A stretch of 64,000 nucleotides of DNA from an uncultured Candidatus Saccharibacteria bacterium (GTDB lineage: Bacteria; Patescibacteriota; Doudnabacteria; UBA920): the NCBI GenBank assembly GCA_964490395.1, contig CAZBAS010000003.1:120293-184292 (forward strand). The letters are read 5' to 3'. Position numbers and translations under genes: made by a program. Positions 5,566 to 44,914 of the stretch are shown piece by piece (positions within the stretch are counted from its first letter, which is position 1; the number at the start of each line of letters is the position of its first letter). The notes under the pieces were generated by a model. That model was given only the letters and a program-made list of their open reading frames with translations, did no database searches and was not told the origin of the DNA.

Positions 5566-6144
5566 ATGTCTAACGATTTAATAAAAGAAGTTCGTGAACT
5601 GACCGGTGCTGGCATGATGGATGTAAAAGAAGCACTGGATGCATCGAACGGTGACAAAGAAGCAGCCATAGAGTACCTTCGCAAGAAAGGCGCTGTAAAA
5701 CTTACAAAGAAAGCTGACCGCGTGGCAAACGAAGGCGTAGTAGAGAGCTATATTCACGGCGGCCGCATTGGTGTGCTGGTAGAACTTAACTGCGAGACCG
5801 ATTTCGTTGCTCGTACCGATGACTTTAAAAACTTAGCCAAAGATATTGCGCTGCACATAGCCGCAGCTGGTCCAATCTTTGTTTCTTCTGCAGAAATTCC
5901 TCTTGAAACCATTGAGAAGGAAAAAGAAATTTACAAAGAACAGACTACTGGAAAACCAGATGATATAGTTGAAAAGATGATTTCTGGTCGTCTTCAAAAG
6001 TACTTTGAAGAGGTATGTTTAATGGATCAGACATTTGTTAAGGATCCGAATCTTAAAATTCAGGACCTCATTTCTACCGCAGTTTCAAAAATGGGCGAGA
6101 ATATTCAGGTTCGTCGCTTCACCCGCTTTGTACTTGGAAACTAA
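5566..6144 (+). CDS. tsf: elongation factor Ts, short form
   Basis: The N-terminal UBA-like segment reads LTGAGMMDVKEALDASNGDKEAAIEYLRKKG. Confidence 0.9.
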   Translation: MSNDLIKEVRELTGAGMMDVKEALDASNGDKEAAIEYLRKKGAVKLTKKADRVANEGVVESYIHGGRIGVLVELNCETDFVARTDDFKNLAKDIALHIAAAGPIFVSSAEIPLETIEKEKEIYKEQTTGKPDDIVEKMISGRLQKYFEEVCLMDQTFVKDPNLKIQDLISTAVSKMGENIQVRRFTRFVLGN

Positions 6145-6149
6145 CATTA

Positions 6150-6250
6150 ACTGACAAAAATTAAAAAAATGACAAGAGTGACAAAAATATAGCTGCTGAA
6201 TCCAGAATATTTTTGTCATTTTTATTTATCCTTGCTCATTTTTGTCATTT
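6150..6250. promoter_or_regulatory. array of five TGACAAAAAT / ATTTTTGTCA sites including a perfect 12-bp inverted pair
   Basis: gtgacaaaaatat is separated by 17 nt from atatttttgtcat. There are three forward and two reverse copies and the array overlaps the start of the next gene. Confidence 0.35.
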
Positions 6251-6255
6251 CAAAT

Positions 6256-7125
6256 ATGTCTGCCTACGTCTTGCCCAACATTATTTTATTCATAGCAATT
6301 GTCGGGCTTTTGGCAGTTCTGGGACGTCACATCCCAGAGGCGCAAAGGCGTGCCCTGCATGCGCGCGACGGCAAGGAAGACACGAGTGGCTCCGCAGACA
6401 GGTATTGGCTTTTGCTTCAGGGCAAGCTCCGAGGCTTCTGGCGTTTTGTACTTGAGGCAAAAGGACTGCGGGATCCTATTGGCTCTAAGTTCCGCATGCG
6501 CCAGTTGCTTGCTGCAAACCAGCGTAAAACGAGAGCTAAGCAGCCAGCGGCTAAGATATCTGCAGCATACAAAGTAGAAGCAGCAGAAGTTGAGTCTGTG
6601 CCACACGTAGTACAACGCACCGAGAGTGCCCATGTAAAGCGTGTAGAGGCCCCTGTGCGAAGCGCCGCGGCCATACCAGCTATGCCTTCGCAGCACGTGC
6701 CGCACGCCCCAAAAATACACTCAGAAGTGGCCAATCCTGCTGAGCAGCGACAAGCAGCCGCAGAGCAACAAGCTGTGGGTGTAGAGCAGGCTATGACTGT
6801 GGCAAAGCAGTACCTGGACAATAAGCAGTATTTTGAAGCACGAAAGCTTTTAGATAGCCTCGGACAAGATGCCCACGCGAGTCCTGTGTTTTGGGCGCGT
6901 CTTGGCTTTAGCCAGTATCACTTAGGTGCATATGGCGAGGCTATACGCTGCTACGAAAAATCTCTGGGTTTGGACGCAAATCAGCCAAACCGCTATTACA
7001 ACTTAGCCTTAGCCTATGAGGCTGCAGGGAACCGTGTAAAAGCTCTGTCCACGCTCCAGAAAGCAATTCAAATGGATCCTAACAATCCGAAATATACGCA
7101 AACTCGTCAGGCGCTGACTAGTTAG
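6256..7125 (+). CDS. membrane-anchored TPR-repeat protein
   Basis: An N-terminal transmembrane helix is followed by a C-terminal TPR-like stretch (YYNLALAYEAAGNRVKALSTLQKAIQMDPNNP). The start is uncertain (6232 or 6256). Confidence 0.55.
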   Translation: MSAYVLPNIILFIAIVGLLAVLGRHIPEAQRRALHARDGKEDTSGSADRYWLLLQGKLRGFWRFVLEAKGLRDPIGSKFRMRQLLAANQRKTRAKQPAAKISAAYKVEAAEVESVPHVVQRTESAHVKRVEAPVRSAAAIPAMPSQHVPHAPKIHSEVANPAEQRQAAAEQQAVGVEQAMTVAKQYLDNKQYFEARKLLDSLGQDAHASPVFWARLGFSQYHLGAYGEAIRCYEKSLGLDANQPNRYYNLALAYEAAGNRVKALSTLQKAIQMDPNNPKYTQTRQALTS

Positions 7126-7194
7126 CTCAGCTGTTGCGCCACCCGCAACATCTTGCTACAATAAGTCCTGTCTGGTTTTTCTTTTCTTTCTTTT

Positions 7195-7230
7195 TCCTCC
7201 CCTAGAATAGGGGAGGCTAGGTGGGGTATT
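7195..7230. repeat. palindromic repeat of the CCCCTAnnnTAGGGG + TGGGG family (P1)
   Basis: tcctcccctagaataggggaggctaggtggggtat. Confidence 0.5.
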
Positions 7231-7273
7231 CTTACATTAGAAATTAGATAACAAGAATTAGACATTCTTAAGT

Positions 7274-7312
7274 GCCCGTCCCGCTAAGCGGGATGATCGG
7301 CACGCTAAGCGT
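7274..7312. repeat. pair of small GC hairpins of the CCCGCTNAGCGGG / CACGCTNAGCGTG family just upstream of tRNA-Thr
   Basis: tcccgctaagcggga is followed by ggcacgctaagcgtgcc. The same hairpin types occur at 14461-14552 and 29501-29545. Confidence 0.45.
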
Positions 7313-7388
7313 GCCGTTGTAGCTCAGTTGGTAGAGCATCTCCATGGTAAGGAGAAGGTCTGCGGTTCGATCCCGCACAACGGCTCCA
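7313..7388 (+). tRNA. tRNA-Thr (anticodon GGT)
   Basis: A manual cloverleaf gives acceptor GCCGTTG/CAACGGC, D-arm GCTC..GAGC, anticodon stem TCTCC/GGAGA with loop ATGGTAA, T-arm TGCGG TTCGATC CCGCA, discriminator T and an encoded CCA. Confidence 0.88.
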
Positions 7389-7390
7389 GA

Positions 7391-7421
7391 AAAACACTGC
7401 AATAAACTAGCAGTGTTTTTT
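7391..7421 (+). terminator. hairpin terminator after tRNA-Thr
   Basis: aaaacactgcaataaactagcagtgtttttt. Confidence 0.5.
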
Positions 7422-7425
7422 ATAT

Positions 7426-8328
7426 ATGGATATACAAATCTTATCCCGCAAGTTCATTGACTACTTAAAGTGCATTAAGGGTTACTCGGCGGAGACGCTC
7501 CGTCGTTACCGGCAGGTCATAAACTATTTTTGTAGCTATGCGCACATACACAGTATTGAACAGGTGGATCAGGAGAATGCGCGAAACTTATTTTACTACG
7601 GTCGTACAGAACAAAAGTGGACCACCAACACTTTTATCTGCAATCACAAGTCACTCATGGCATTCTTTCGCTGGTGCATGAAAGAAGAGCATATGACCTT
7701 TAACCCTATGGAAGCGATAGAGGTGCCGAAGCTGGAGAAACGGTTGCCACCGAAGCTAAACAAACAAGACGCGCTGCGCATACTTGAAGTTGTAGATAAC
7801 TATCCGTATGACAGCAAGTTCTTGCGCCTAAGGAGTTACGCAATATTCGCAAAGTTCATAATGGCAGGAGTGCGAAAGAAAGAACTATTAAATTTAAAAT
7901 ATACAGACGTTGAAATAGAAAACCTTTCCATATTCATCCGGCAGGGGAAGGGGAGTAAAGACCGGGTTGTACCAATTAACTACCGGCTGGCAGAAGCATT
8001 GCAGCGCTATGCAGAAGAGCGCCGCAGGGCAAACAAAACCTGCCCGGAGTTTTTTACTTCTTCTACGTATGACCAGGGCTTTACACATAGCGGTTTAAAG
8101 CGCGTACTGGAAAGAATAATACAAACTTCCGGCATACAGTTTAACATTCACAAGCTGCGCCACACATTTGCCACGCTAATGCTTGAAGGCGGCTGTGACC
8201 TGTACAGCCTTTCAAAAATGATGGGGCACAACGATATTAAAACCACCACCATATACTTGGCCGCTAACATTGAGCACCTGCGGGCGCAAATTACCAAACA
8301 CCCTTTGGCTCAGTGGTTTATGGGTTGA
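7426..8328 (+). CDS. tyrosine recombinase / phage-type integrase
   Basis: The C-terminal catalytic region reads HKLRHTFATLMLEGGCDLYSLSKMMGHNDIKTTTIYL (R..HxxR..Y). It sits immediately 3' of a tRNA. Confidence 0.85.
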   Translation: MDIQILSRKFIDYLKCIKGYSAETLRRYRQVINYFCSYAHIHSIEQVDQENARNLFYYGRTEQKWTTNTFICNHKSLMAFFRWCMKEEHMTFNPMEAIEVPKLEKRLPPKLNKQDALRILEVVDNYPYDSKFLRLRSYAIFAKFIMAGVRKKELLNLKYTDVEIENLSIFIRQGKGSKDRVVPINYRLAEALQRYAEERRRANKTCPEFFTSSTYDQGFTHSGLKRVLERIIQTSGIQFNIHKLRHTFATLMLEGGCDLYSLSKMMGHNDIKTTTIYLAANIEHLRAQITKHPLAQWFMG

Positions 8329-8416
8329 TTTTTAGGTCCTTTTGCAGTATAGTAGCTTATCTCATGGCCGGGTTTTCCTGCCATGTACATCAACCTGTAG
8401 GAGGAAAAATTAAGCT

Positions 8417-8887
8417 ATGGCAGAAGTTGTGAGTATTTTTACTGCACAAGATAAAGGTCAGCCTATGGTCTCCCATCAGCTCATTCAAGCTTTGGCTGGT
8501 GTGGGCTTGGCGGGTGATCGTTACGCTAATAGAAGAGGGGCATTCTCGGGTGCGAAAGCGCGGCAAACAGTCCGGCACGTCTCGCTTATTGCTGAAGAAG
8601 CAATTGCAGCGGCAAACGCCGAGCTGGACAATCCATTTGCACCAGAAGAAACACGCCGCAACATTCTTACTCGCGGCATTAACCTAAACGAACTTGTCGG
8701 GGTTGAGTTTTCTGTCGGCGTAGTGCGCATGCGTGGGGTCGAACTTTGTGATCCGTGCGGACGTCCTGCAAACCTGGCGGGGAAGGCATACTTTGACGTT
8801 GCGTTCGCTGACCGCGGTGGCCTCCGCGCTGAAGTTTTATCAGGCGGAACCATTAATGTTGGCGACGCAATAACCATCAATGCTTAG
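8417..8887 (+). CDS. MOSC-domain protein (YiiM-like)
   Basis: It contains GDRYANRRGAFSG and VELCDPCGRP, the typical MOSC Cys region. The gene is GC-rich compared with its neighbours. Confidence 0.65.
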   Translation: MAEVVSIFTAQDKGQPMVSHQLIQALAGVGLAGDRYANRRGAFSGAKARQTVRHVSLIAEEAIAAANAELDNPFAPEETRRNILTRGINLNELVGVEFSVGVVRMRGVELCDPCGRPANLAGKAYFDVAFADRGGLRAEVLSGGTINVGDAITINA

Positions 8888-9055
8888 GCTAACCACCTAA
8901 GCCAACCGAACGGAGGTCGGTGTATGCGTTTTGCGGAATGGTTGTTTATCATTGCTCTAATGCTTTATACCACAGCTATTGTGTGGCATAAGGTCGTAAA
9001 CGAACTTCGCATACCTATTGCGGTAGTTTTTTGAGCCGGCCTCCTAAACGACGTA

Positions 9056-9817
9056 ATGGGTACGTTTCTCCTGTGTGTTGCTGCTGCACATTCCTGGCAG
9101 TGGAACACTCACAGTATTGCAGGCCTGGCCGCTTTGGTGATCATGGCCGCACACTTTGGTTGGTACCTACTGGCCTTGTTCAAAAGCGGGAAGTGGGCAG
9201 TTTCATTCCACCGTTGGTCAGTTGCGGCTTGGGCGGTTTGGCTCGTGGCATTTGTGTCCGGCATTCCAGTCGGAGTGTGGGCACAATTATGGATCGCCGC
9301 TTCAATTACAGCGATGACGTGGTTTAGTTGGCGGCTGGCGGTAAAGCTTTATGTGCCACCTAAGATGGTCCGGGCAACATTGCTGGATCAGATTGAAGTG
9401 CTGGATGCCTCGGTCAAGCAACGGCGCTACTCCTGTGGGCACGATGCATCGAAGACGTTCAGGGTTTCATTCTACGGACAAGTGAGCAAGTTGTTCAAGC
9501 GTGCTCGCAAGTGCCCTGACTGTTTCATTGCAGAAGTTTCCCCGCACGTTATCCGCTGTGTCTTGTGCGGCGACCCGATTTTTCCTGGCGATGGGGTCGC
9601 GTTATATGCACCAGACAATACCATGAGGCTGGATATCGCCACCACTCTTCCCGATGGTCAGGTCATCGGCTGTATGGGTTGGGACTGTTGTGACTGCGGC
9701 GCGTTCTTCGCTGGCAACTGGTCAGTGGAAGGGTTTGTGCCCAGGTTTGGAGGCAGAACCGCGGGACAAGAGGCAATGGCTACAGGAAACACCATCGTAG
9801 TCAACCAAATAAGTTAG
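9056..9817 (+). CDS. membrane protein with a cysteine-rich C-terminal domain
   Basis: Four transmembrane helices are followed by several CxxC motifs (CPDCF, CVLCGD, CMGWDCCDCG). The gene is GC-rich and its function is unknown. Confidence 0.5.
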   Translation: MGTFLLCVAAAHSWQWNTHSIAGLAALVIMAAHFGWYLLALFKSGKWAVSFHRWSVAAWAVWLVAFVSGIPVGVWAQLWIAASITAMTWFSWRLAVKLYVPPKMVRATLLDQIEVLDASVKQRRYSCGHDASKTFRVSFYGQVSKLFKRARKCPDCFIAEVSPHVIRCVLCGDPIFPGDGVALYAPDNTMRLDIATTLPDGQVIGCMGWDCCDCGAFFAGNWSVEGFVPRFGGRTAGQEAMATGNTIVVNQIS

Positions 9818-9911
9818 CAATCGCCAAAACTTAAATTTTCAGGACAAGTGTCCACCGCTGCGAAGAAAGGCGCAGCGGTTTTTTATTGTGCGAATATATT
9901 CGTATATATAC

Positions 9912-9943
9912 AAAAAGAACGTACAAGTTAGTACGTTCTTTTT
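9912..9943. terminator. bidirectional hairpin terminator
   Basis: aaaaagaacgtac aagtta gtacgttcttttt is a perfect 13-bp stem flanked by A and T runs. Confidence 0.6.
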
Positions 9944-9946
9944 GTA

Positions 9947-10216
9947 TGGTGGGCCGAGTAGGATTCGAACCTACGAAGGCATAAGCCAGCTGATTTCAAT
10001 TTTCTCGGAGTTTCCTCTGAGGATCGGACTATATCTTCACCGTGATCAGTATGATGGTAGGTGTTTCGGTATCTAGTCTCTACGGCGCTCCCCGGCAGTG
10101 TGCCAGAGTTCCCACGGTATTACCATATTTACCTTAGTAAATTTAGGCTTCACCGTTATCCCGAAAAGTTCACTTTAGCGTTTCCACTAAAGGCTGCAAT
10201 TGTTTACAGTCAGCCC
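9947..10216 (-). ncRNA. candidate tmRNA (ssrA-like): a tRNA-like 3' terminus whose 5' acceptor partner lies 260 nt upstream
   Basis: On the minus strand the RNA ends GUAGG-UUCGAAU-CCUAC-UCGGCCC-A-CCA, which is a T-arm, a 3' acceptor strand, a discriminator and an encoded CCA. No anticodon or variable arm precedes the T-arm, unlike a tRNA. The complementary 5' strand GGGCUGA lies at plus-strand positions 10210-10216. No canonical -LAA tag ORF was found, so the call is tentative. Confidence 0.4.
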
Positions 10217-10246
10217 CCGTTGACCGCTTGGGTATCGACCCGCGTT

Positions 10247-10846
10247 TTACGCGGTAAGGTCAGTGAGTAATGCTTTGCATTCGGTCAATATTTCTTCAAG
10301 CAGTTTTTTATCGCTGTACCTAATATGGATTACGCCTTGAGGCATTGTTCGGTTTAAGCGCGTGCCCTGATTCTGGCGAACGTAGGGCTTTGTAAACTGA
10401 TTTTTAGAAACTTTAAGGGCTTTCGCCCAGTAATTGATTAGTCCCGTGGGACTATCTTCAGAAAAGCAATACAGGTAAAATCTTAGCTTATTTTCGTCTA
10501 TTTGGCAAATCTCTCTGAGGAATTTAAGGAACAATTTTATTGCTGGCATGGATGAGTTGGCAAGGTCTACGGTATTGCCAGTTTTGGCACCTTCGCCCCA
10601 GTAGAGCATTAAGGCGGCTATTTGGAGGTGTCGTTGTGGGGGAGTCAGCTTACTGACAATACTGTAGGTCTTGGGTGTCTGGAGAAATCGAAGTTTGTTT
10701 TGCTCGGTCTGGCTACGCATGCGCACTTTGGCCCTTCTGAGGATTCGATACACAGTGTGTATCGCCACGCCAGTTTCTCTGGCGATTGCAGGGGTGCTTC
10801 TGCCAGCGTTGTACAATGTAGTTATTTTTTCTGTATCAATCTCCAT
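10247..10846 (-). CDS. helix-turn-helix DNA-binding protein with a C-terminal domain of unknown function
   Basis: The N-terminal HTH reads LYNAGRSTPAIARETGVAIHTVYRIL. The weak LYWGEGAK similarity to LAGLIDADG is not convincing. Confidence 0.5.
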   Translation of the reverse strand: MEIDTEKITTLYNAGRSTPAIARETGVAIHTVYRILRRAKVRMRSQTEQNKLRFLQTPKTYSIVSKLTPPQRHLQIAALMLYWGEGAKTGNTVDLANSSMPAIKLFLKFLREICQIDENKLRFYLYCFSEDSPTGLINYWAKALKVSKNQFTKPYVRQNQGTRLNRTMPQGVIHIRYSDKKLLEEILTECKALLTDLTA

Positions 10847-10868
10847 AGCATTATTATAACATAAGACA

Positions 10869-10886
10869 AGCTGATAATTATCAGCT
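10869..10886. promoter_or_regulatory. perfect 18-bp palindrome AGCTGATAATTATCAGCT in a divergent promoter region
   Basis: It lies between the divergently transcribed HTH gene (minus strand) and the 10983 gene (plus strand) and is a likely operator. Confidence 0.35.
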
Positions 10887-10982
10887 TAGCATTACAAATG
10901 CTCACCTCCTGTTTCCTCTAACTGGTTTTATCTTTACTGCTCATGCTATACTGAATGTACCTTTTAATACATTTAAGCGTCC

Positions 10983-11576
10983 ATGCAGCCGCATTTTCCT
11001 CAAGCCTTACTCGAAGATACCCCAGAAGCGGATATAATTAGTTTTTTGTTATTTGCTCCGCCAAGAACCTTTAGCGCTCGTGAACTTGGAGTCCGACTTG
11101 GTCTCCGACCTAATAAATTAGTAGATAGCCTTGCCCGTTTGGTGGAGGGTGGTCAGCTTGTTACCTGTAGTAGAGGATCCATTCGCTACTACCGTTTGAA
11201 TCAGAAGCATAGATTTTACCCAGAGGTCCGTGAGGCGCTCATGGAACGGGGGAAAGACTACGAAGACGAACTATTTGCAGCTCTGAAAAAACTTGGTGCT
11301 AAAGCCGCCTTCCTGAGCGGTCTGTTTGTAGGAAAGCCTGAGCTAGAGGTGGACATGCTTATAGTGGGTAGTGTAAAAGAAGATAAGCTTAAGGCATTCA
11401 TAGAGGCGTGTGAACACATGATGGGGCAGGAGATAAACTACTGCATTATGGAAGAAGCGGAGTTTGTTGTTCGCCGCGACACTTTTGATAGGTTTATAAA
11501 AGATATCTTTGATTATCCGTACATTACCGTAGTAGATACTATTCAGCAGAAAAAGACACAAAAGCAGACAGCGTAA
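10983..11576 (+). CDS. winged-HTH plus minimal nucleotidyltransferase (Pol-beta superfamily)-like protein
   Basis: FSARELGVRLGLRPNKLVDSLARLVEGGQLV looks like a winged HTH. GLFVGKPELEVDMLIVGS resembles the MNT motif G..G....SD.D with E.D in place of D.D. Confidence 0.45.
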   Translation: MQPHFPQALLEDTPEADIISFLLFAPPRTFSARELGVRLGLRPNKLVDSLARLVEGGQLVTCSRGSIRYYRLNQKHRFYPEVREALMERGKDYEDELFAALKKLGAKAAFLSGLFVGKPELEVDMLIVGSVKEDKLKAFIEACEHMMGQEINYCIMEEAEFVVRRDTFDRFIKDIFDYPYITVVDTIQQKKTQKQTA

Positions 11577-11602
11577 ATGGACTTTGTGGATAACTTAAAC
11601 TT

Positions 11603-11680: not shown

Positions 11681-11822
11681 TTACTGGTTACAAGACATCA
11701 ATTGTAAATTCAAAAAATGCAATGTCTGGGGTCGGCTGGCATTTGTCAGGACTGCAGAGCCAAGTCTTAGTAACCAGTAATTATTGCGCAAGATTTGAAT
11801 TACGAAGTATGAATTAAGAATT

Positions 11823-12215
11823 ATGCAATCGCACGAACAGAATAAAATTGAGAAGTTTACAGATTTGAATGCATGGCGAGAAGCGCATAATTTGGTTCTA
11901 AAGACTTATGTTGTTATTAAGGATTTTCCTAAGGATGAGTTATTTGGCCTTACGAGTCAGCTAAGACGTGCAGTAGTTTCCATAACGTCGAATATTGCCG
12001 AGGCGTTCAGTAGAAATTCCTTTAAAGAAAAGTTACAATTTTGGGCTATAAGTTTAGGTTCTTTAACAGAAGTCCAAAATCAGTTAATTATAGCTCGAGA
12101 TGTAGGTTATTTGAGTCCACAAGACTACGAAGCCCTGAACAGTCAGTCCATAGTTGCTAGTAAGTTAATCAATGGTTTAATCAAGAAAACTAAAGTAATT
12201 ATTCATAATTCGTAA
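11823..12215 (+). CDS. four-helix-bundle protein (23S rRNA intervening-sequence / Avd-like family), paralogue 1
   Basis: It has the family signature FGLTSQLRRAVVSITSNIAEAFSR. It is about 40% identical to the paralogues at 12879, 13880 and 32497. Confidence 0.8.
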   Translation: MQSHEQNKIEKFTDLNAWREAHNLVLKTYVVIKDFPKDELFGLTSQLRRAVVSITSNIAEAFSRNSFKEKLQFWAISLGSLTEVQNQLIIARDVGYLSPQDYEALNSQSIVASKLINGLIKKTKVIIHNS

Positions 12216-12239
12216 TTCAGTATTCATAATTCAAACTCT

Positions 12240-12857
12240 ATGAGCAAAGATATTACAGGTAGACAAAAAGAATTACTACAATTCATCATAAAACAGGTGC
12301 GAGAGCACAATCTGCCACCGTCTATTTCTGAAATGGCAACTTTTCTTAAAGTGAGCTCCAAGAATGCAGTAGCTAAACTGCTCAATGCTCTGGAAGAAGC
12401 GGGCTACATAAAAACAGACGGTCGTGCGCGCGGTATAACCATATTAGATGCTTTGGGGGATACTCTAGAAAAAGGACTAATTCGCGTACCACTTCTTGGG
12501 CGCATTCAAGCTGGTGTACCGCACATGGCAGAAGAGCAAATAGAAGAGTGGGTTAACTTACCGCAAACTCTGGTAAAGGGTCGTAGAGATGTATTCCTGC
12601 TTAAAGTTCGCGGTGAAAGTATGATAAATGCTGGAATTTACGAAGGGGACCTAGTTATAGTTCGTCCCACCAAAGAAGCAAAGAATACAGATATAGTGGT
12701 GGCTCTTCTGCATGACGAAGCAACGGTGAAGCGACTTATATATGTAAAGAACCGAGCATACCTTAAAGCGGAAAATCCTGAATTCCCAAATATCTATCCT
12801 AAAGAAGAGTGGACCATACAAGGTAAAGTAGTCGGCGTTATCCGAAACCTAGAATAG
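12240..12857 (+). CDS. lexA: LexA repressor (S24 peptidase)
   Basis: An N-terminal winged HTH is followed by a C-terminal VRGESM (Ser) and VKRL (Lys) dyad. The fold motif GDLVIV is present. Confidence 0.9.
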   Translation: MSKDITGRQKELLQFIIKQVREHNLPPSISEMATFLKVSSKNAVAKLLNALEEAGYIKTDGRARGITILDALGDTLEKGLIRVPLLGRIQAGVPHMAEEQIEEWVNLPQTLVKGRRDVFLLKVRGESMINAGIYEGDLVIVRPTKEAKNTDIVVALLHDEATVKRLIYVKNRAYLKAENPEFPNIYPKEEWTIQGKVVGVIRNLE

Positions 12858-12878
12858 TAGTCAGAATATAGTAGTCGG

Positions 12879-13256
12879 TTGTCAGTTAATACGATCTGTA
12901 TGACCATACTCAAGTTTGAAGATATCCTTGCCTGGAAAAAGGCGCATGAGCTAACTCTTATGGTCTACGCACTCACTAAGGATTTCCCCCGAGAAGAGAT
13001 ATTCGGTCTAACTAGCCAGATTCGCGGGGCTGCGGTATCCGTTCCATCAAATATAGCCGAAGGGTTTAAGCGCAGAACCAAGAGCGACTCAATTCACTTT
13101 TATAATATTGCCCAAGGTTCATTGGAAGAAGCTAAATATCAGTTATTGCTCGCGCGCGACTTGGGTTATATACGAAATTCAGATTTTGATCTCAGTGCTG
13201 TTATTACAGATGAGGCAGGTAGATTGCTTGCCGGTTGGATTAGAAACGCTAAATAG
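12879..13256 (+). CDS. four-helix-bundle protein (IVS/Avd-like), paralogue 2
   Basis: FGLTSQIRGAAVSVPSNIAEGFKRR. Confidence 0.8.
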   Translation: MSVNTICMTILKFEDILAWKKAHELTLMVYALTKDFPREEIFGLTSQIRGAAVSVPSNIAEGFKRRTKSDSIHFYNIAQGSLEEAKYQLLLARDLGYIRNSDFDLSAVITDEAGRLLAGWIRNAK

Positions 13257-13350
13257 TACTAACAACTAACAACTGACTACTTACAACTTAATTAATTCCC
13301 CTGCGGTCGTCAGGGTCGTGTTAAACATTCTCTAAATTAAATTTACGTAT

Positions 13351-13842
13351 ATGCAATTAGATTTACAACTACAACAATTAAATGGTTTTTTTGGGACCGC
13401 TGCGTTGGCTACCTATGCCGGTAATAGTGGGTACGCAAAACCAATTAATAAGGGTTTTAAAGAGATGGAATATCGGGAAAACGACTGGTATTACCGTGAC
13501 AGCTATTGTGGCTTCTTTAAATCGTGGGGCAAAGAAACAGTGTGGTTCAAAGAAAAGCCTGTTTGGGTACAAAACTATGGAGGTGGCATGAACACCGAGT
13601 ACCAAGGCAATGAAAGTTTTGCTAAGCGCACATTTAGTTTTCTTAAGTCCGCGCTTGCTGCCGGCAAAAAGAGTGAAGTGTTTCAACCGCGCGGCCCGAA
13701 ACAGTACAAAAAAGGTAATTGGAGATACGAAACAGACCTAGATGGCGGCATTCAAAAGTTCAATGGTTTTGAAAAAATATTTTATAAAGATAAATTAGTA
13801 TTTACCCACCGCTATTTCGGCGGAGTTGTCATAGACAGGTAG
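13351..13842 (+). CDS. hypothetical protein, rich in aromatic and Gly residues
   Basis: It is an intact 163-aa ORF between two four-helix-bundle genes. No motif was recognised. Confidence 0.45.
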   Translation: MQLDLQLQQLNGFFGTAALATYAGNSGYAKPINKGFKEMEYRENDWYYRDSYCGFFKSWGKETVWFKEKPVWVQNYGGGMNTEYQGNESFAKRTFSFLKSALAAGKKSEVFQPRGPKQYKKGNWRYETDLDGGIQKFNGFEKIFYKDKLVFTHRYFGGVVIDR

Positions 13843-13879
13843 TTCATAAAGTTTATAAAGTCCATAAAGTAAATGCAAT

Positions 13880-14224
13880 ATGAAAATTAATAATTTCGAA
13901 GATATTATTGCATGGCAAAAAAGCAAAGACCTGGGGCTTCGACTTTATAAATCTTTTGGCAGACACGCCGATTATGGTTTTAGGGACCAAATACTTCGAG
14001 CGGTCATAAGCATTGCGAATAATATTGCGGAGGGCTTTGAAAGGCGGAGCAATAAAGAATTAAGGCAATTTCTGTTCATTGCAAAAGGATCGTGCGGTGA
14101 AGTTCGGTCTATGCTCTACTTCGCTTCTGAACTGGGTTATATAACATCCGCAGAGCTCGATAGCTATATGGATTCCTCTATAGAAATATCTAAATTATTA
14201 TCTGGATTTATTAAAACTTTATAA
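13880..14224 (+). CDS. four-helix-bundle protein (IVS/Avd-like), paralogue 3
   Basis: ILRAVISIANNIAEGFERRSNKE. Confidence 0.8.
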   Translation: MKINNFEDIIAWQKSKDLGLRLYKSFGRHADYGFRDQILRAVISIANNIAEGFERRSNKELRQFLFIAKGSCGEVRSMLYFASELGYITSAELDSYMDSSIEISKLLSGFIKTL

Positions 14225-14261
14225 ACTTTAAGAACTTTATTAACTTTTAACTTAAAAATAT

Positions 14262-14456
14262 ATGTCAGAAATGGAACTGACCAAACAAAATATAGTAAGT
14301 CAATTGCGCCGGTTGTGCGCACACTGCAATGCTGGACAGCAAGTGCCCCATCGTTGCACGGTTAAAGAAATAGCGCTTCGCGTACAGGCAATTCGCGGTA
14401 TTCCACTTATTGTAAATGACGAGTTTCGTGGTGTGCTCAACCCTTCATATCGCTAG
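14262..14456 (+). CDS. small hypothetical protein (64 aa)
   Basis: It is an ORF with the Cys/His pattern CAHCN..HRC. Confidence 0.3.
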   Translation: MSEMELTKQNIVSQLRRLCAHCNAGQQVPHRCTVKEIALRVQAIRGIPLIVNDEFRGVLNPSYR

Positions 14457-14460
14457 TATG

Positions 14461-14552
14461 GTCTGTCATCCCGCTCAGCGGGATGCTAACCACGCTGAGC
14501 GTGGTCATTCCCGCACATGCGGGAATCCAGTGTCGCTATCCCAGCGACACAG
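14461..14552. repeat. cluster of four consecutive short GC hairpins
   Basis: catcccgctcagcgggatg, accacgctgagcgtggt, cattcccgcacatgcgggaatc and gtgtcgctatcccagcgacac. The stems resemble the termini of the TGTCATTCCGG MITE-like family. Confidence 0.5.
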
Positions 14553-14606
14553 CCAAAGCTCTTAGTTTAGTTTGTAAATTATTTTGTTCTTAACACAAAA
14601 AAGTAT

Positions 14607-14870
14607 ATGCAAACATCTACAGTGCAGTACAAGTACAGTACTCGAACGCAAGGCTGGGTGGCTCGCGAAAAACCAGCATCGTACGCTGGTCGTGAAGATG
14701 CGTTATTGCTGGAGTTTAAAAAAGAAAGCATTGCCTTAGCGCAGCAAATATGGGAACTTGCAAATTTAGATACTAAAATTACTCCCATGGAGGAAGCAAA
14801 ACTAGTATTTAAACTGGAAGCCATTCTAGATATGCGCCGTGAACTAGTAAAAGAGGCGGGTACCAAATAA
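14607..14870 (+). CDS. hypothetical small protein (87 aa)
   Basis: ORF only. Confidence 0.35.
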   Translation: MQTSTVQYKYSTRTQGWVAREKPASYAGREDALLLEFKKESIALAQQIWELANLDTKITPMEEAKLVFKLEAILDMRRELVKEAGTK

Positions 14871-14943
14871 CAAAAATAGCCATAAAAGGCTATTTTTGCT
14901 GTATCAGGCCGACATGCTATTATATTTATAATCTTCCAATCAT

Positions 14944-15171
14944 ATGGAACTTACTAAAGAATATTTGGATAAACACTATCAAGAGCTTAACGAATTTCTC
15001 AGCGAACAGTTTGAGAAGGTTTTTGCTCGTTTCGATGAAATGGCCGCCAAAGCGGAGCTAGCGGCCCTGGAGAGAAAAACAACCGAGGGATTTGCAGAAC
15101 AATCTATTAAACTTGGTTTTATCCAAGCAGGCATAGCGATATTGAGAAAGGACTTAGAAGCCTTGGCCTAA
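14944..15171 (+). CDS. hypothetical coiled-coil protein that may continue by a +1 frameshift to 15280
   Basis: The stop at 15169-15171 is followed by an overlapping open frame reading KRTKDDDNAFTKELIKLKSRIDALERKVQALKKQHA, which ends at the terminator. Confidence 0.35.
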   Translation: MELTKEYLDKHYQELNEFLSEQFEKVFARFDEMAAKAELAALERKTTEGFAEQSIKLGFIQAGIAILRKDLEALA

Positions 15172-15264
15172 GCGCACCAAAGATGATGATAATGCTTTTA
15201 CCAAAGAACTTATTAAGTTGAAAAGTCGTATAGATGCTCTTGAGCGTAAGGTCCAAGCCCTCAA

Positions 15265-15297
15265 AAAACAACACGCCTAAATCGGCGTGTTGTTTTA
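15265..15297 (+). terminator. Rho-independent terminator
   Basis: aacaacacgcc taaat cggcgtgttgtttt. Confidence 0.6.
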
Positions 15298-15458
15298 TCT
15301 GTCTATGTACATAGGATTTTTGGTAGACCAACGGCGAACCAAACCGAGCTAGAATATACTAAAGCAATCTTAGAGATTGAGTTTTCCAATAATAATTGAG
15401 GTGTACGAAAAGAGAATGGAAAACTATTTCACGATACTTATAAGCTATTGAAGTAAAA

Positions 15459-16031
15459 ATGACACAAGATATAAAAGATAAGCTAAATAATAAGCTCAGA
15501 AGCCTTCCTTACACTGAAGTGGACGTGGTTTATATTCTCGTTCAAACATATAAAATATTGGAAAGTTCGGATATGCTTGAAAGTTATAAGACCATAAAGT
15601 TTTTCCGAAATTGGTCGTGCCATGCCAAGCTGAATGGCGATGCTGCAAGAATTTTCAAAGATGCTTACACCTTGATCGAAAATCAAAATAGTTTTAAAGA
15701 TCGTTTCGAATTTATCGACGCTTTCACTGATCAGATAAGTATCTGTTTCTCTAAGTATTCATTTAGCAAGTTGAGACAGCAGACGGAAGAATCCTTTGCC
15801 TCTTTAGGTGTCGAGGGTTTAAATTGGGAAGAGTTTAGAAAAAGTCTATACGGGGTCATTCAAGATACTCCGCTAATTGTATTAGATGAACAGAGAGAAG
15901 AAATAATGCGTTTTAAGTGTGTCGATGCCATCTATGATATGGAGCATGATGACATAGAGATTGAAGTCACTACAGAGACTGGCGTAAACGTAAATATTAC
16001 AACGAATGATTTGGCGCTAGAAGATAATTAG
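15459..16031 (+). CDS. hypothetical cytoplasmic protein (190 aa) in an AT-rich cassette
   Basis: It is an intact ORF. Local GC is about 33%, against roughly 48% in the flanking DNA. Confidence 0.5.
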   Translation: MTQDIKDKLNNKLRSLPYTEVDVVYILVQTYKILESSDMLESYKTIKFFRNWSCHAKLNGDAARIFKDAYTLIENQNSFKDRFEFIDAFTDQISICFSKYSFSKLRQQTEESFASLGVEGLNWEEFRKSLYGVIQDTPLIVLDEQREEIMRFKCVDAIYDMEHDDIEIEVTTETGVNVNITTNDLALEDN

Positions 16032-16252
16032 ATTTGCTTAGTAAATTATAAAAGCCTCTAATTATAGGAGCATAAGTCGTCCACCCGTCTTGTTTTCCTC
16101 TACCACTAACAACCTCATCCCCCTGGATGGGTTTTTTAGTTTAGTTTTATTCATGCGAATTGAGTTTTCCAAAATTTTGGTCTGATTGTTGCATTTCTGA
16201 ATTAAGCCTATAATTAAGACAAGTTAGTTTTCATACACATTAGGTATTCAAT

Positions 16253-16996
16253 ATGTTAATTAAACCCGAAGATATTACTTACAAAATTTATTCTAAACTC
16301 ACTGATTTTAGGTCAGGTTTTTTTATTTTGTTTTTAGTTTTCGTGATATGGACCGCCATTGACCCACGTTGGCAGATTGTGGTATCTAGGGAATTATTTA
16401 TCTCGACCCTTAAAGCAATGATAACGATACTACTTGCTATTGGGGGCATCACTGCAAGTTTTGTAACCATAGCAGTAGGGCTAACAAAAAATAAAAAACG
16501 TGTCGAAGTTACCAATCTTTGGTTGGAATTAGCAAAATATATTATATATCCATTCGCGGTAATCGTACTGATCGGTATAATATTATTTTTAACTCAAATA
16601 AATATATCAATTCCCGATACGAATTCTTCTCTCTCCCTGCTTATGTTTTTTGGGTTTCTAGTTGCTAACTCCTTTTTTGTAATTATAAAGGCATCAGAGA
16701 TTCTTATTGATCAAAGTTGGGTTGAGGAGGAGAAGTTTGAACGTCTTAAAAAACTATTCCCCGTTAGCGAACTAAATAAAACTTTTAAACTTCTAAGGTT
16801 TGAACAACAAAGTGGTAGAATTTATATTTATGATTTAATCAGAAGGAAAAGGAATTGGATATACAATTGGAAGACTTTCACCGATTTGGGTTATCCGCCT
16901 GGGAGCTGGCAAGAAATAGATTTGAATAATGTGCCCAATGAGTTTAGGGACTACTTAGACGATGAAGATATAATATCTCCAGATAGTAATAAATGA
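16253..16996 (+). CDS. hypothetical membrane protein with four transmembrane helices and a soluble C-terminal domain, in an AT-rich cassette
   Basis: There are four hydrophobic helices in the N-terminal 150 aa and the C-terminus is charged. Confidence 0.5.
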   Translation: MLIKPEDITYKIYSKLTDFRSGFFILFLVFVIWTAIDPRWQIVVSRELFISTLKAMITILLAIGGITASFVTIAVGLTKNKKRVEVTNLWLELAKYIIYPFAVIVLIGIILFLTQINISIPDTNSSLSLLMFFGFLVANSFFVIIKASEILIDQSWVEEEKFERLKKLFPVSELNKTFKLLRFEQQSGRIYIYDLIRRKRNWIYNWKTFTDLGYPPGSWQEIDLNNVPNEFRDYLDDEDIISPDSNK

Positions 16997-17096
16997 AGAT
17001 CTCTTACCAAAGCCAAAAATGTTTTCCATCTGTCTCGACTTGGTCTACCGAAAATACCGCGTGTGCGGTATTTTTGGTAGCTTCTTTTCAGGTAGG

Positions 17097-17768
17097 CTAT
17101 TGTGCCGGAGTTTTGAGTGCGTCTTCTATGCGCTGTTTTACTTCTTGTATGCCGCCTTGGAATACTTGCTCGCCATTTACATAAAATGTTGGGGTGCCAG
17201 GGTTGCCAAGTGTGGTGCCATCTGCCTTGTCTTGCTCTATTCGGTCCCGGTGGGGGTGGGTAACCAGGGCTTTATCAAACTTTTCTGCATCAAGTCCTAC
17301 GTCGGCTGCTATTTTTCTGAATATAGGTTTTGGGTCTGTAAGTGTTTCCCATTCTGGTTGGCGGGCATAAAGCGCGTCCACCATCTCAAAGAATTTTCCT
17401 TGGTCCGCTGCTGCTTCTACTGCATCTGCACCTGCGACTGCATTTGCGTGTTGAGGTAGGGGGTAGTGGCGAAATACGAATTTAACTCGGTCGCCGTATG
17501 TTTTATACAAGTTGTCTACCGCTGGGTTGGTACCTGCGCATGCGGGACACTGCATATCTCCAAATTCTATAACAGTAATTTTGCTATCCAATTTCCCACG
17601 TACATGTGGGGTCTCGCGATTTACTGCAGTGGCCTTGTCTGTGCTGCTTGCTGCGCTGCCCGTCCCGGGTGCTGTGTTATTGTTTTTCGCAATAAAATAG
17701 ATGCCTACTGCAAGTACAACAACAACTACCGAAATAATGAGTGTAACTATTTTAGTTTCTTTGGTCAT
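17097..17768 (-). CDS. DsbA/BdbD-family thiol:disulfide oxidoreductase, membrane-anchored
   Basis: It has an N-terminal transmembrane helix and a thioredoxin fold with a CPAC active site. Confidence 0.8.
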   Translation of the reverse strand: MTKETKIVTLIISVVVVVLAVGIYFIAKNNNTAPGTGSAASSTDKATAVNRETPHVRGKLDSKITVIEFGDMQCPACAGTNPAVDNLYKTYGDRVKFVFRHYPLPQHANAVAGADAVEAAADQGKFFEMVDALYARQPEWETLTDPKPIFRKIAADVGLDAEKFDKALVTHPHRDRIEQDKADGTTLGNPGTPTFYVNGEQVFQGGIQEVKQRIEDALKTPAQ

Positions 17769-32496: not shown

Positions 32497-32865
32497 TTAG
32501 CTCATTTTTCTGATGGTTGCCCATAACATGCGAGCTATCTCGTCTCCTAAATTATATGCTTTGCTGTAATTATCTTCGTTAATCCATGTTTCCCGATTTG
32601 CAAACTTTAGTAAGTACTGGCTTTCCTTTAAGGATCCGAAGGCGATTTCTAAGAAGTTTAATTGTACCTTATATCTGAACCTGGCGAAACCTTCAATGTA
32701 ATTTAATGCTATAGATAATGCTGCTCGCTTGTGCTGTGAACTTGATCCGAATAGTTCTTCTTTTGGATATTTGTTAGTAATAGCGTAAATAAGGTGGACA
32801 TAAGCATCGATCTTCACTTGAAGAATGTCATGGAATTTATCTTGGTTATCTGTTACATGTTCCAT
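32497..32865 (-). CDS. four-helix-bundle protein (IVS/Avd-like), paralogue 4
   Basis: FGSSSQHKRAALSIALNYIEGFAR. Confidence 0.75.
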   Translation of the reverse strand: MEHVTDNQDKFHDILQVKIDAYVHLIYAITNKYPKEELFGSSSQHKRAALSIALNYIEGFARFRYKVQLNFLEIAFGSLKESQYLLKFANRETWINEDNYSKAYNLGDEIARMLWATIRKMS

Positions 32866-43735: not shown

Positions 43736-43954
43736 GTCGCTAGGCATACTGCTAATCGCATGAGTGGTTTCGAAGGTATATCGATATTACTCACGCGCTC
43801 AGCAAGTGGGACTGGCGCGATTATGATTGGCCCGTGAACGCCACGGTTGCCAATTTTCGCGCCAGTTCCGGCGCACGAACAGTTCCTTGAAATATACAAA
43901 CTCGGTGGCTACCGCATGCGCGGCGCCATCTTTTTGCTACAAAAGGGGGGCAAA

Positions 43955-44914
43955 ATGACTTATCGACGAAAAATCAATCTTTTATTCATTCTCGTAGGCA
44001 TTCTATTGGTGTTGGCAGTATGTATGCTGCCTGCATTGTTCGATTCGCTTCACGCGCAATCCTTGCCACAAGGGCCCGCGGTTGTTAAGCTTCAGGTTTC
44101 GGGTCGAAATGACGACTCTAACCTGTTGTCTGAACGATTGCAAGGGTGGCTCGGCCCTCGCGCCGCAGTGGACGTGTCGCCTGACGCCTCCGTTGACGCT
44201 ACTGTGGTCTTGGACTTTCTGAGATTCGACAGTAGCTATAAGCCGCAACAGCGTTCGATTATCCGCGAAGGCGGTGCAGATGGTGCGAGTCGTGGAATCG
44301 GTGATCTAGGCCAAGCAACTGCTGGTGAGCTTGAAAGAAACGGCGGCATTGCGGGTCGTGCCATTGGCGCCGCAATTCGGACTGGTTCTAACACCGCCAG
44401 CCAAAAGACCCAGCAGAAAATTTTATATGGAGCCCCCAAGTACGAAAGTGTTCAGCTTCAGTATAAATACTGTCTGGGGGATAACTGCAAGCCTCTGAGT
44501 GCCACCCTGTATGCCCAAGTTGAAAGACAAACGGATTCTACAGGACAGTGGAGTAAGTTTAAGGTTCTGGAAGTGGGGCACGATCCCCAGAACCTTCAAC
44601 CGCTTGAACCCGTAATGGACCTTGGTGAGGGCTACTCGGCCCTATTTCCCGCCCGCATGCAGGAGGGGCTCTTTGCCCTCATGATGCATACGAACCCTCG
44701 AACGCAGGAGGACGAGCCGCGTTGGCCATTGGTACGGGGGGACGAAATGTTCGTGCGCCTTCGGCAACTTGTCGAAACTAAAGCAGTTGCTAAGACCACG
44801 CGAGAGAGGGCAGTTACTACAGTTGCCCCTCCGACAACGCGGCCAACGAAGCCGCCAAAGTATAATGCCCCAGAAAGGGTGGGGCCAAACACCGCCACGG
44901 GTCGCAAGCCCTAG
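43955..44914 (+). CDS. hypothetical membrane-anchored protein, GC-rich
   Basis: The ORF is about 58-60% GC against a ~48% background. It has an N-terminal transmembrane helix and a Pro/Thr-rich C-terminus. The start is uncertain (43847 or 43955). Confidence 0.45.
   Translation: MTYRRKINLLFILVGILLVLAVCMLPALFDSLHAQSLPQGPAVVKLQVSGRNDDSNLLSERLQGWLGPRAAVDVSPDASVDATVVLDFLRFDSSYKPQQRSIIREGGADGASRGIGDLGQATAGELERNGGIAGRAIGAAIRTGSNTASQKTQQKILYGAPKYESVQLQYKYCLGDNCKPLSATLYAQVERQTDSTGQWSKFKVLEVGHDPQNLQPLEPVMDLGEGYSALFPARMQEGLFALMMHTNPRTQEDEPRWPLVRGDEMFVRLRQLVETKAVAKTTRERAVTTVAPPTTRPTKPPKYNAPERVGPNTATGRKP

Follow-up and report, generated by a model that had tools for sequence, protein, structure and literature searches.

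A tyrosine recombinase gene next to tRNA-Thr

We analysed a stretch of 64,000 nt of contig CAZBAS010000003.1 from an uncultured Candidatus Saccharibacteria bacterium (64 kb, in the following called the window), in which a tRNA-Thr(GGU) gene is directly followed by a gene for a tyrosine recombinase. Next on the same strand are genes for a MOSC-domain protein and for a Cys-rich protein with a hydrophobic N-terminus, and the block is closed by a terminator and a tRNA gene on the minus strand whose 3′ end faces the block (Table 1). A first-pass annotation had proposed that this block is a small genomic island of about 2.5 kb, or the remnant of a larger one, lying between tRNA-Thr and a tmRNA-like gene. 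ARAGORN, Rfam and Pfam confirmed the tRNA-Thr gene and the recombinase, whose open reading frame (ORF) starts 37–38 bp past the end of the tRNA gene.

Table 1 Features of the tRNA-Thr locus in the window and of the tRNA-Thr gene split in the related locus L004. Positions of the L004 rows refer to that locus.
Feature	Position	Strand	Basis and details
tRNA-Thr(GGU)	7313–7388	+	ARAGORN; Rfam tRNA 67.6 bits; intron-less, CCA encoded
Hairpin (A-run, 12-bp stem, T-run)	7389–7421	+	Between tRNA-Thr and the recombinase ATG
Tyrosine recombinase, 300 amino acids	7426–8328	+	PF00589; Xer-like "simple" architecture: core-binding and catalytic domain, without arm-binding domain
MOSC-domain protein, 156 amino acids	8417–8887	+	PF03473, 2.2e-11
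5′ part of HsmA-like membrane-protein frame	8924–9034	+	In-frame TGA at 9032–9034
Cys-rich ORF, 253 amino acids	9056–9817	+	HsmA-like transmembrane N-terminus and Cys-rich C-terminal domain
Terminator of the Cys-rich ORF (GC-rich hairpin and T-run)	9854–9879	+	Fold
Bidirectional terminator	9908–9947	both	Perfect 17-bp inverted repeat (9908–9924/9931–9947), flanked by A-run and T-run
tRNA-Tyr(GUA) gene	10241..9947	−	ARAGORN with introns allowed
tRNA-Tyr 5′ exon, 36 nt	10206–10241	−	ARAGORN
Predicted group I intron, 209 nt, position 35/36	9997–10205	−	RF00028 and ARAGORN with introns allowed
tRNA-Tyr 3′ exon, 50 nt	9947–9996	−	A36 onwards, long variable arm, T arm, acceptor strand, CCA
L004, orphan tRNA-Thr 5′ half	5742–5779		GCCAATG...CCCCC ATGGTAA, then foreign sequence
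L004, orphan tRNA-Thr 3′ half	from 11557		ATGGTAA GGGGG...CATTGGC TCCA, 5.8 kb downstream of the 5′ half

The space between the tRNA gene and the recombinase gene is filled by a hairpin (−14.6 kcal/mol, z −7.3), the last base of which is 4 nt short of the recombinase ATG. A hairpin at this place was found in 22 of 30 related loci with differing stem sequences. The 5′ arm motif CACTGCA is repeated in many relatives, and the more distant loci share just the shape of A-run, stem and T-run. The exact pattern does not occur a second time in the 64 kb. Because distant loci preserve the shape without the sequence, we consider a terminator, which the hairpin resembles, the simpler reading, and a dif-like or att-like protein site is disfavoured. 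Since the gap between hairpin and ATG leaves almost no room for a promoter, the recombinase probably depends on read-through of the tRNA terminator for its expression.

The recombinase matches Phage_integrase (PF00589) at 1.6e-29, and Pfam assigns SAM-like core-binding domains to its N-terminus. The catalytic residues R150, K175, H242, R245, H268 and Y277 are invariant throughout the family alignment, and the window copy appears catalytically intact. Its alignments to the NCBIfam models of XerC (179.2 bits, cutoff 335), XerD (174.1, cutoff 330) and XerA (176.4, cutoff 220) run from end to end, yet all are below the cutoff; the nearest characterised protein is Listeria XerD at ~33% identity. 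The first-pass annotation had considered that the enzyme might turn out to be the conserved chromosomal XerC/XerD, but with bit scores well under the cutoffs of both, its sequence is not that of a canonical XerC or XerD.

Relatives of the recombinase lie in inserts that split tRNA genes

We found >2000 homologues of the recombinase, the top 120 of them 64–79% identical to it and ~295–300 amino acids long. Scanning one genome per species yielded 54 loci, and 58 loci were fetched in all, with identities to the window copy ranging from 48 to 79% across the family. The 54 loci belong mostly to Patescibacteria, together with Niastella populi (61% identity) and with Ascidiimonas, Tenacibaculum and Winogradskyella (48–54%). 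Two copies each were found in a single Myxococcota chromosome and in a single metagenome-assembled genome of Chitinophagales (L020/L031 and L040/L043).

In about 30 of the 58 fetched loci, the recombinase gene starts 35–40 bp past the 3′ end of a tRNA-Thr gene. These tRNA-adjacent loci are spread over many Patescibacteria lineages and also include Niastella, Myxococcota and Chitinophagales. No synteny of other window genes with the recombinase was seen across the 54 loci; the position after the tRNA gene is the conserved trait. In 13 of the ~30 loci, the tRNA-Thr gene itself is interrupted after position 36 by ~190 nt. This insertion matches the "divergent group I intron" published for position 36/37 of tRNA-Thr(GGU). 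Rfam gave no match for the L057 copy at E up to 1, in agreement with the published type, which is missed by RF00028.

What these recombinases are associated with can be seen in the locus L004, whose recombinase is 65% identical to the window copy. Here, the host tRNA-Thr(GGT) gene is cut at the anticodon loop by an insert of 5,777 bp (element span 5742–11601). The two orphan halves have complementary stems (GCCAATG/CATTGGC and CCCCC/GGGGG), share the 7-bp repeat ATGGTAA and, when joined, are called as tRNA-Thr by ARAGORN. The repeat is the 7-nt anticodon loop, and the same ATGGTAA forms the anticodon loop of the tRNA-Thr in the window. Inside the L004 insert follow a leader with TAAACAGG(T/C)C motifs, an intact tRNA-Thr gene with different stems, the family recombinase, four ORFs and a second tyrosine recombinase adjoining the right junction.

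Traces of the same arrangement are frequent. An additional orphan 5′ half of tRNA-Thr lies 150–200 nt upstream of the recombinase-proximal tRNA-Thr in at least 17 loci, and L035 has two orphan tRNA-Thr 3′ halves. The orphan 5′ halves end in GGTAA, for example in L003, L007, L011, L013, L018, L019, L022, L023, L029, L033, L044, L056 and L057. They are followed by a conserved leader unit of ~130 nt with TAAACAGGTC..., a TAAGG-TAT-TT box and a covarying stem-loop GACC...AAACAGGTC..CGGCTCA. This leader could hold integrase sites, the promoter of the replacement tRNA, or both. RNase P RNA was considered for the RNA gene upstream in some relatives and rejected, as there was no Rfam match and the motif is the element leader. 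In L037, L039, L046 and L047, the orphan half derives from tRNA-Ala or tRNA-Ile instead of tRNA-Thr.

Tenacibaculum skagerrakense (L045) and Winogradskyella sp. (L046; coordinates 5832–11577) have in common a 5.7-kb segment of 90.6% identity. It begins exactly at the anticodon loop of the disrupted tRNA, tRNA-Ile(GAT) in L046, ~170 bp upstream of the recombinase, and is evidence for a recent transfer between genera. Downstream of the recombinase the content varies: for 13 Patescibacteria-type loci the next genes were listed, and among the proteins of the 11 that were scanned the directly following genes are mutually unrelated, 14 of 20 lack a Pfam match and several encode DNA methylases.

Judged from these sequences, the family is best described as the integrase of a tRNA-splitting element, and an integrase reading is reasonable. 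Its target site appears to be the 7-nt anticodon loop, mostly of tRNA-Thr(GGU) in Patescibacteria and of other tRNAs in Bacteroidota. The fuller copies comprise the ~130-nt leader, a complete tRNA-Thr belonging to the element, the recombinase and cargo that varies, with the host tRNA left behind as two orphan halves. An unusual trait is that the element supplies the whole replacement tRNA and the target is not repaired.

The cultured Bacteroidota isolate Niastella populi (L027) has a tRNA-Thr(GGU) gene with a "divergent" group I-like intron after position 36, ~290 nt upstream of its 61%-identical recombinase. This type of tRNA-Thr intron had previously been reported from Patescibacteria only (PMC13011429), and its presence in L027 suggests that it travels with the element.

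Further variants were observed. The two tRNA-Thr-recombinase segments of the Myxococcota chromosome (L031 and L020) are 97% identical over 5 kb, and one copy carries a 760-bp insert encoding an HNH-like protein inside the 3′ end of the recombinase gene (L031 6836–7654). A 57-bp direct repeat lies on both sides of this insert and restores the recombinase reading frame. Three loci have an orphan 5′ half of tRNA-Ala(TGC), together with the leader, ahead of the recombinase, and the recombinase stop codon is faced by an intact tRNA-Ala(TGC) gene on the other strand. L037 is longer than L047 (6916) by 750 bp that contain two small ORFs (6920–7668) and are inserted exactly at the CCA end of the minus-strand tRNA-Ala. 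This inverted tRNA-Ala arrangement is not explained by simple integration. An inversion in L037/L047 between the orphan half and the intact minus-strand tRNA-Ala was considered as well, and a search across 6 kb turned up no orphan 3′ half.

The window copy as a probable reduced integrase module

Among the relatives with flanking DNA, L057 is the closest, and its gene order rpsB-tsf-TPR-tRNA-Thr-recombinase is the same as in the window; L056 has TPR-tRNA-Thr-recombinase. Unlike the window, L057 possesses the orphan tRNA-Thr 5′ half, the leader and the intron. Homology between the two ends exactly at the recombinase stop codon, after which L057 continues with a gene for 1192 amino acids without a counterpart in the window. 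The recombinases are 79% identical, compared with 70% for ribosomal protein S2 (rpsB) and 62–66% for EF-Ts (tsf). A metagenome scan with the TPR neighbour for a closer relative returned one irrelevant match. As no close relative was found, there is no empty site for comparison.

We searched the 64 kb for island borders by exact and mismatch search, blastn-short, regular expressions and nhmmer profiles. Neither half of tRNA-Thr, nor the end of tRNA-Tyr, was found to recur above chance, and the tRNA-Thr and tRNA-Tyr ends have no repeat in common. The nhmmer half-tRNA profiles recovered the intact tRNA-Thr gene at E 1e-12 to 1e-13, with no further match below E 1. The leader motif TAAAYAGGYC is not enriched (13 matches compared with 17 expected). 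A direct repeat of the tRNA-Thr 3′ end or of the supposed tmRNA 3′ end, as the first-pass annotation had proposed to look for, is therefore lacking in the 64 kb.

We favour the reading, with a probability of roughly 55%, that the block represents an integrase module at tRNA-Thr, either bare or a remnant, together with two genes that may be cargo. The window copy would then be a stripped-down form of the element, with an intact tRNA-Thr, the hairpin and the recombinase, and without leader or orphan halves. Recombination between two 5′ halves in direct repeat may have removed the left scar, and the right end would have eroded or disappeared. What remains of the variable arm would be the MOSC gene and the decaying chimera of HsmA-like and Cys-rich parts (see below).

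Several observations weigh against this reading. No orphan half, leader or repeat lies within the 64 kb, so no island border can be named. The left flank is shared with L057, and MOSC homologues were never seen beside a recombinase in the contexts examined. Searches of phage, plasmid and IMG/VR collections found no member of the family, the best matches being 31–33% identical. In L004 and L035, the second recombinase beside the right junction may itself be the integrating enzyme. The family is moreover dense, its conservation is strong and it almost always consists of one gene of ~297 amino acids, as would also be expected of a housekeeping gene passed on vertically, and Xer-like recombinases of candidate phyla, the "Cand" subgroup, have been placed as possible Xer substitutes (PMC8138268).

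The main alternative is a domesticated or housekeeping Xer-type ("Cand") enzyme inherited vertically beside tRNA-Thr, with MOSC and the Cys-rich ORF as ordinary genes in a genome of low synteny and no island at all. We regard this as a possible but rather unlikely explanation. It agrees with the two-domain architecture and full-length matches to the Xer models, with the large number of homologues of uniform length, with the upstream order retained in L057 and L056, with the absence of an attR across the 56 kb downstream and with the normal third codon positions of the MOSC gene. Vertical descent of the recombinase is not proved by the common left flank: with the tRNA-Thr gene itself as the target, left synteny would be expected anyway. 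Family members within tRNA-splitting inserts as in L004, two copies in one genome, the 90%-identical nucleotide segment in two genera of Flavobacteriia and identities of 54–64% across phyla are all at odds with a housekeeping role, as are the bit scores far under the XerC/XerD cutoffs and the better conservation of the recombinase than of S2 between the window and L057.

Going beyond the integrase module, the window recombinase might be a live member of an undescribed and very widespread group of elements in Patescibacteria and Bacteroidota. These would insert into the 7-nt anticodon loop without target repair and bring a complete replacement tRNA that is often interrupted by an intron within the crossover sequence. 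We consider this full version doubtful. If it were true, the abundant anticodon-loop introns of Patescibacteria (Thr 36/37; Tyr, Asn and Asp 35/36) would be tied to elements, and the introns would be either an immunity of tRNA genes against further integration or hitch-hikers on the replacement tRNA. The coincidence that tRNA introns lie inside the 7-nt crossover sequence is a lead of interest, together with the family-level architecture; a limited literature search found neither described.

Candidate cargo genes and sequence composition

The MOSC protein has many homologues, the best of them 58–66% identical and some labelled by their source as Patescibacteria, in contexts unrelated to each other. 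The N-terminal third of the Cys-rich ORF is hydrophobic and HsmA-like (a match to TIGR03987 below its cutoff), and nine of its ten Cys residues lie in the C-terminal half. The Cys-rich part (residues 100–246) matches a single relative, a stand-alone Patescibacteria protein of 162 amino acids (P0242). No synteny of this gene with the recombinase was seen in relatives. The HsmA-like frame extends upstream to 8924 but is closed by the in-frame TGA at 9032–9034; one public gene prediction runs on past the stop and gives 297 amino acids. TGA is a genuine stop here because it also ends the recombinase gene, and given this closed frame the Cys-rich ORF looks like a decayed, fused gene of chimeric origin.

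The window has a GC content of 0.449, and its 59 ORFs have a mean GC of 0.452 (standard deviation 0.042) and a mean GC at third codon positions (GC3) of 0.437 (standard deviation 0.057). The MOSC gene has a GC content of 0.529 and an ordinary GC3 of 0.452 (z 0.26). Because its excess is confined to codon positions 1 and 2, it reflects the amino-acid content. Mild outliers are the Cys-rich ORF (GC 0.542, GC3 0.591, z 2.7) and the recombinase gene (GC 0.451, GC3 0.545, z 1.9). The tetranucleotide deviation of the block reaches about the 90th percentile. Both cargo candidates thus exceed the gene mean, as the first-pass annotation had pointed out when it described them as GC-rich cargo, but the MOSC third positions are ordinary and other genes are equally GC-rich, such as 43847–44914 (0.540) or the upstream TPR gene (0.517). 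Composition is weak support for a foreign origin.

The stretch at 11.7–17.7 kb is clearly more deviant than the block. This most deviant part of the window (11700–17700) is AT-rich with a GC3 z of about −2 and contains a DUF5680 gene and unmatched ORFs. It also carries three genes for a "23S rRNA intervening sequence protein" (IVP; 11823–12215, 12879–13256 and 13880–14224) and a LexA-like gene (12240–12857). Two of the IVP genes are framed by inverted repeats (11794–11825/12204–12235 and 12856–12875/13262–13281), like small cassettes. A fourth IVP gene lies at 32497–32865 on the minus strand.

An intron-split tRNA-Tyr gene at the right end

The block ends with a perfect palindrome that folds with −24.4 and −23.5 kcal/mol on the two strands (z −7.8 and −8.8), in line with the strong bidirectional terminator of the first-pass annotation. 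Its final base is the terminal A of the adjoining minus-strand tRNA gene. The tRNA-type 3′ end at 9947 had likewise been recognised correctly, with T arm, acceptor strand and CCA facing the block. The gene behind it was, however, misassigned as tmRNA-like. ARAGORN detected no tmRNA in the window, and Rfam gave no tmRNA match in 9800–10400 even at E up to 10. ARAGORN and Rfam instead identify tRNA-Tyr(GUA) with a group I intron. Removal of the intron reveals the 5′ half, the anticodon arm and the long variable arm of a class II tRNA-Tyr, ruling out a tmRNA.

Read on the minus strand from 10241, the gene consists of GGGTCGATACCCAAGCGGTCAACGGGGGCTGACTGT, the 209-nt intron and AAATCAGC, followed by the long variable arm, the T arm, TCGGCCC, A and CCA (9947). 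The spliced product of 86 nt was independently called as tRNA-Tyr(gta) by ARAGORN. The group I intron model RF00028 matches over its full length at 10004–10215 on the minus strand with 59.5 bits (gathering score 50; E 1.4e-12). As read from the sequence, the 5′ splice site would follow U35, with a U.G pair in P1 (CUGU|AA with UUGCAG), and the omega-G would be G9997. An intron end at G10004, the limit of the Rfam alignment, was rejected since it yields no tRNA. Group I introns at position 35/36 of Patescibacteria tRNAs were described by Nakagawa et al. 2026 (PMC13011429), including one case in tRNA-Tyr(GUA). That study also demonstrated self-splicing for related 35/36 introns and explained why such genes escape standard annotation. 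The window intron is accordingly classed as a predicted self-splicing group I intron, ordinary for the phylum.

A minus-strand ORF of 199 amino acids (10247–10846) stops 5 nt short of the tRNA-Tyr 5′ end. Its N-terminus carries a resolvase-type helix-turn-helix domain (PF02796), and by eye its C-terminal part shows a LAGLIDADG-like "LYWGEGAK" motif. This part had no Pfam or PDB match, and a single-sequence AlphaFold model was unusable (predicted local distance difference test, pLDDT, 40). The ORF could encode a free-standing homing endonuclease beside an endonuclease-less intron.

The identity of this gene bears on the first-pass model of a discrete ~2.5-kb island with attachment sites at the 3′ ends of tRNA-Thr and a tmRNA, which we now consider extremely improbable. 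An integrase does adjoin tRNA-Thr and a tRNA-type 3′ end does face the block, and minus-strand tRNAs likewise face the 3′ end of the recombinase gene in L037, L039 and L047, with the extra 750 bp of L037 placed exactly at the CCA end. But the presumed tmRNA is an intron-bearing tRNA-Tyr, the two ends lack a common repeat, the documented crossover of the family is the anticodon loop and not the 3′ end, and two different tRNAs in opposite orientation cannot form the attL/attR pair of one conservative integration. Nothing indicates that tRNA-Tyr is used as an attachment site. A tRNA gene with an adjacent integrase is not sufficient to call an island. What speaks for an island of about 2.5 kb or its remnant is the integrase family and the break of synteny at the recombinase stop codon; an att repeat and a border are missing. 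Such an island is possible, at most as a remnant, and is not demonstrated.

The orientation of tRNA-Tyr also permits another arrangement, in which the block 7313–9946 is inverted relative to the order tRNA-Tyr-tRNA-Thr-recombinase of some relatives. In L017 and L022, tRNA-Tyr(GTA), tRNA-Thr(GGT) and the recombinase lie on one strand, the window would take on this order if the block were inverted and read on the minus strand, and a site-specific recombinase is at hand. We nevertheless judge this very unlikely: there are no inverted repeats at 7313 and 9947, L017 and L022 are distant (61–62% recombinase identity), and the TPR-tRNA-Thr left junction is common to L057, so that any inversion would have to be old.

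Discussion

The block resembles Islander-type tRNA islands, in which a tyrosine integrase beside a tRNA gene faces variable DNA with poorly conserved genes after it. The relatives belong by their crossover to the anticodon-loop class of integration sites, the 7-nt loop being directly repeated at both junctions (L004). In classical islands, the target tRNA is regenerated from a partial copy, and one displaced fragment is left. In the relatives, by contrast, both junctions are unregenerated, both host halves are orphaned and a complete replacement tRNA-Thr lies in the insert. The window itself also differs from classical islands, having no displaced tRNA fragment in its 64 kb.

In layout, the block is similar to the Tycheposons of Prochlorococcus (Hackl et al., bioRxiv 10.1101/2020.12.28.424599), small islands of a streamlined genome with an inward Xer-like recombinase at one end, a full-length tRNA and variable cargo. 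Tycheposons have partial-tRNA flanks and often a replication module, whereas the window block has no partial tRNA, primase or helicase. With XerC/XerD and the "Cand" subgroup (Smyshlyaev et al. 2021, PMC8138268) the recombinase shares the two-domain architecture and the catalytic residues. It differs from XerC/XerD in reaching about half of the NCBIfam cutoffs, in its constant position after a tRNA gene, in its occurrence in tRNA-splitting inserts, in being multicopy in some genomes and in its distribution across phyla.

The tRNA-Tyr(GUA) gene has in common with tmRNA (ssrA) only the T arm, the acceptor strand and the CCA end. It is a further instance of the tRNA group I introns of Patescibacteria (PMC13011429), missed by default tRNA finders and without an essential difference from them. 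The words "recombinase" and "integrase" do not occur in that paper, and no recombinase is mentioned beside tRNA-Thr genes.

For the window, the main outcome is a correction: an intron-split tRNA-Tyr gene, missed by standard finders, had been mistaken for a tmRNA. Integrases adjacent to tRNA genes and group I introns in Patescibacteria tRNAs are known kinds, and the window adds one example of each. Across Patescibacteria, organisms with tiny genomes and poorly understood routes of gene gain, the recombinase family marks tRNA-Thr(GGU) as a hot spot of recombination. Should the family prove to be an active integrase, it would join Xer-like "Cand" recombinases and intron-bearing tRNA genes, which have so far been described separately, and would provide a handle on how Patescibacteria acquire accessory and restriction-modification genes.

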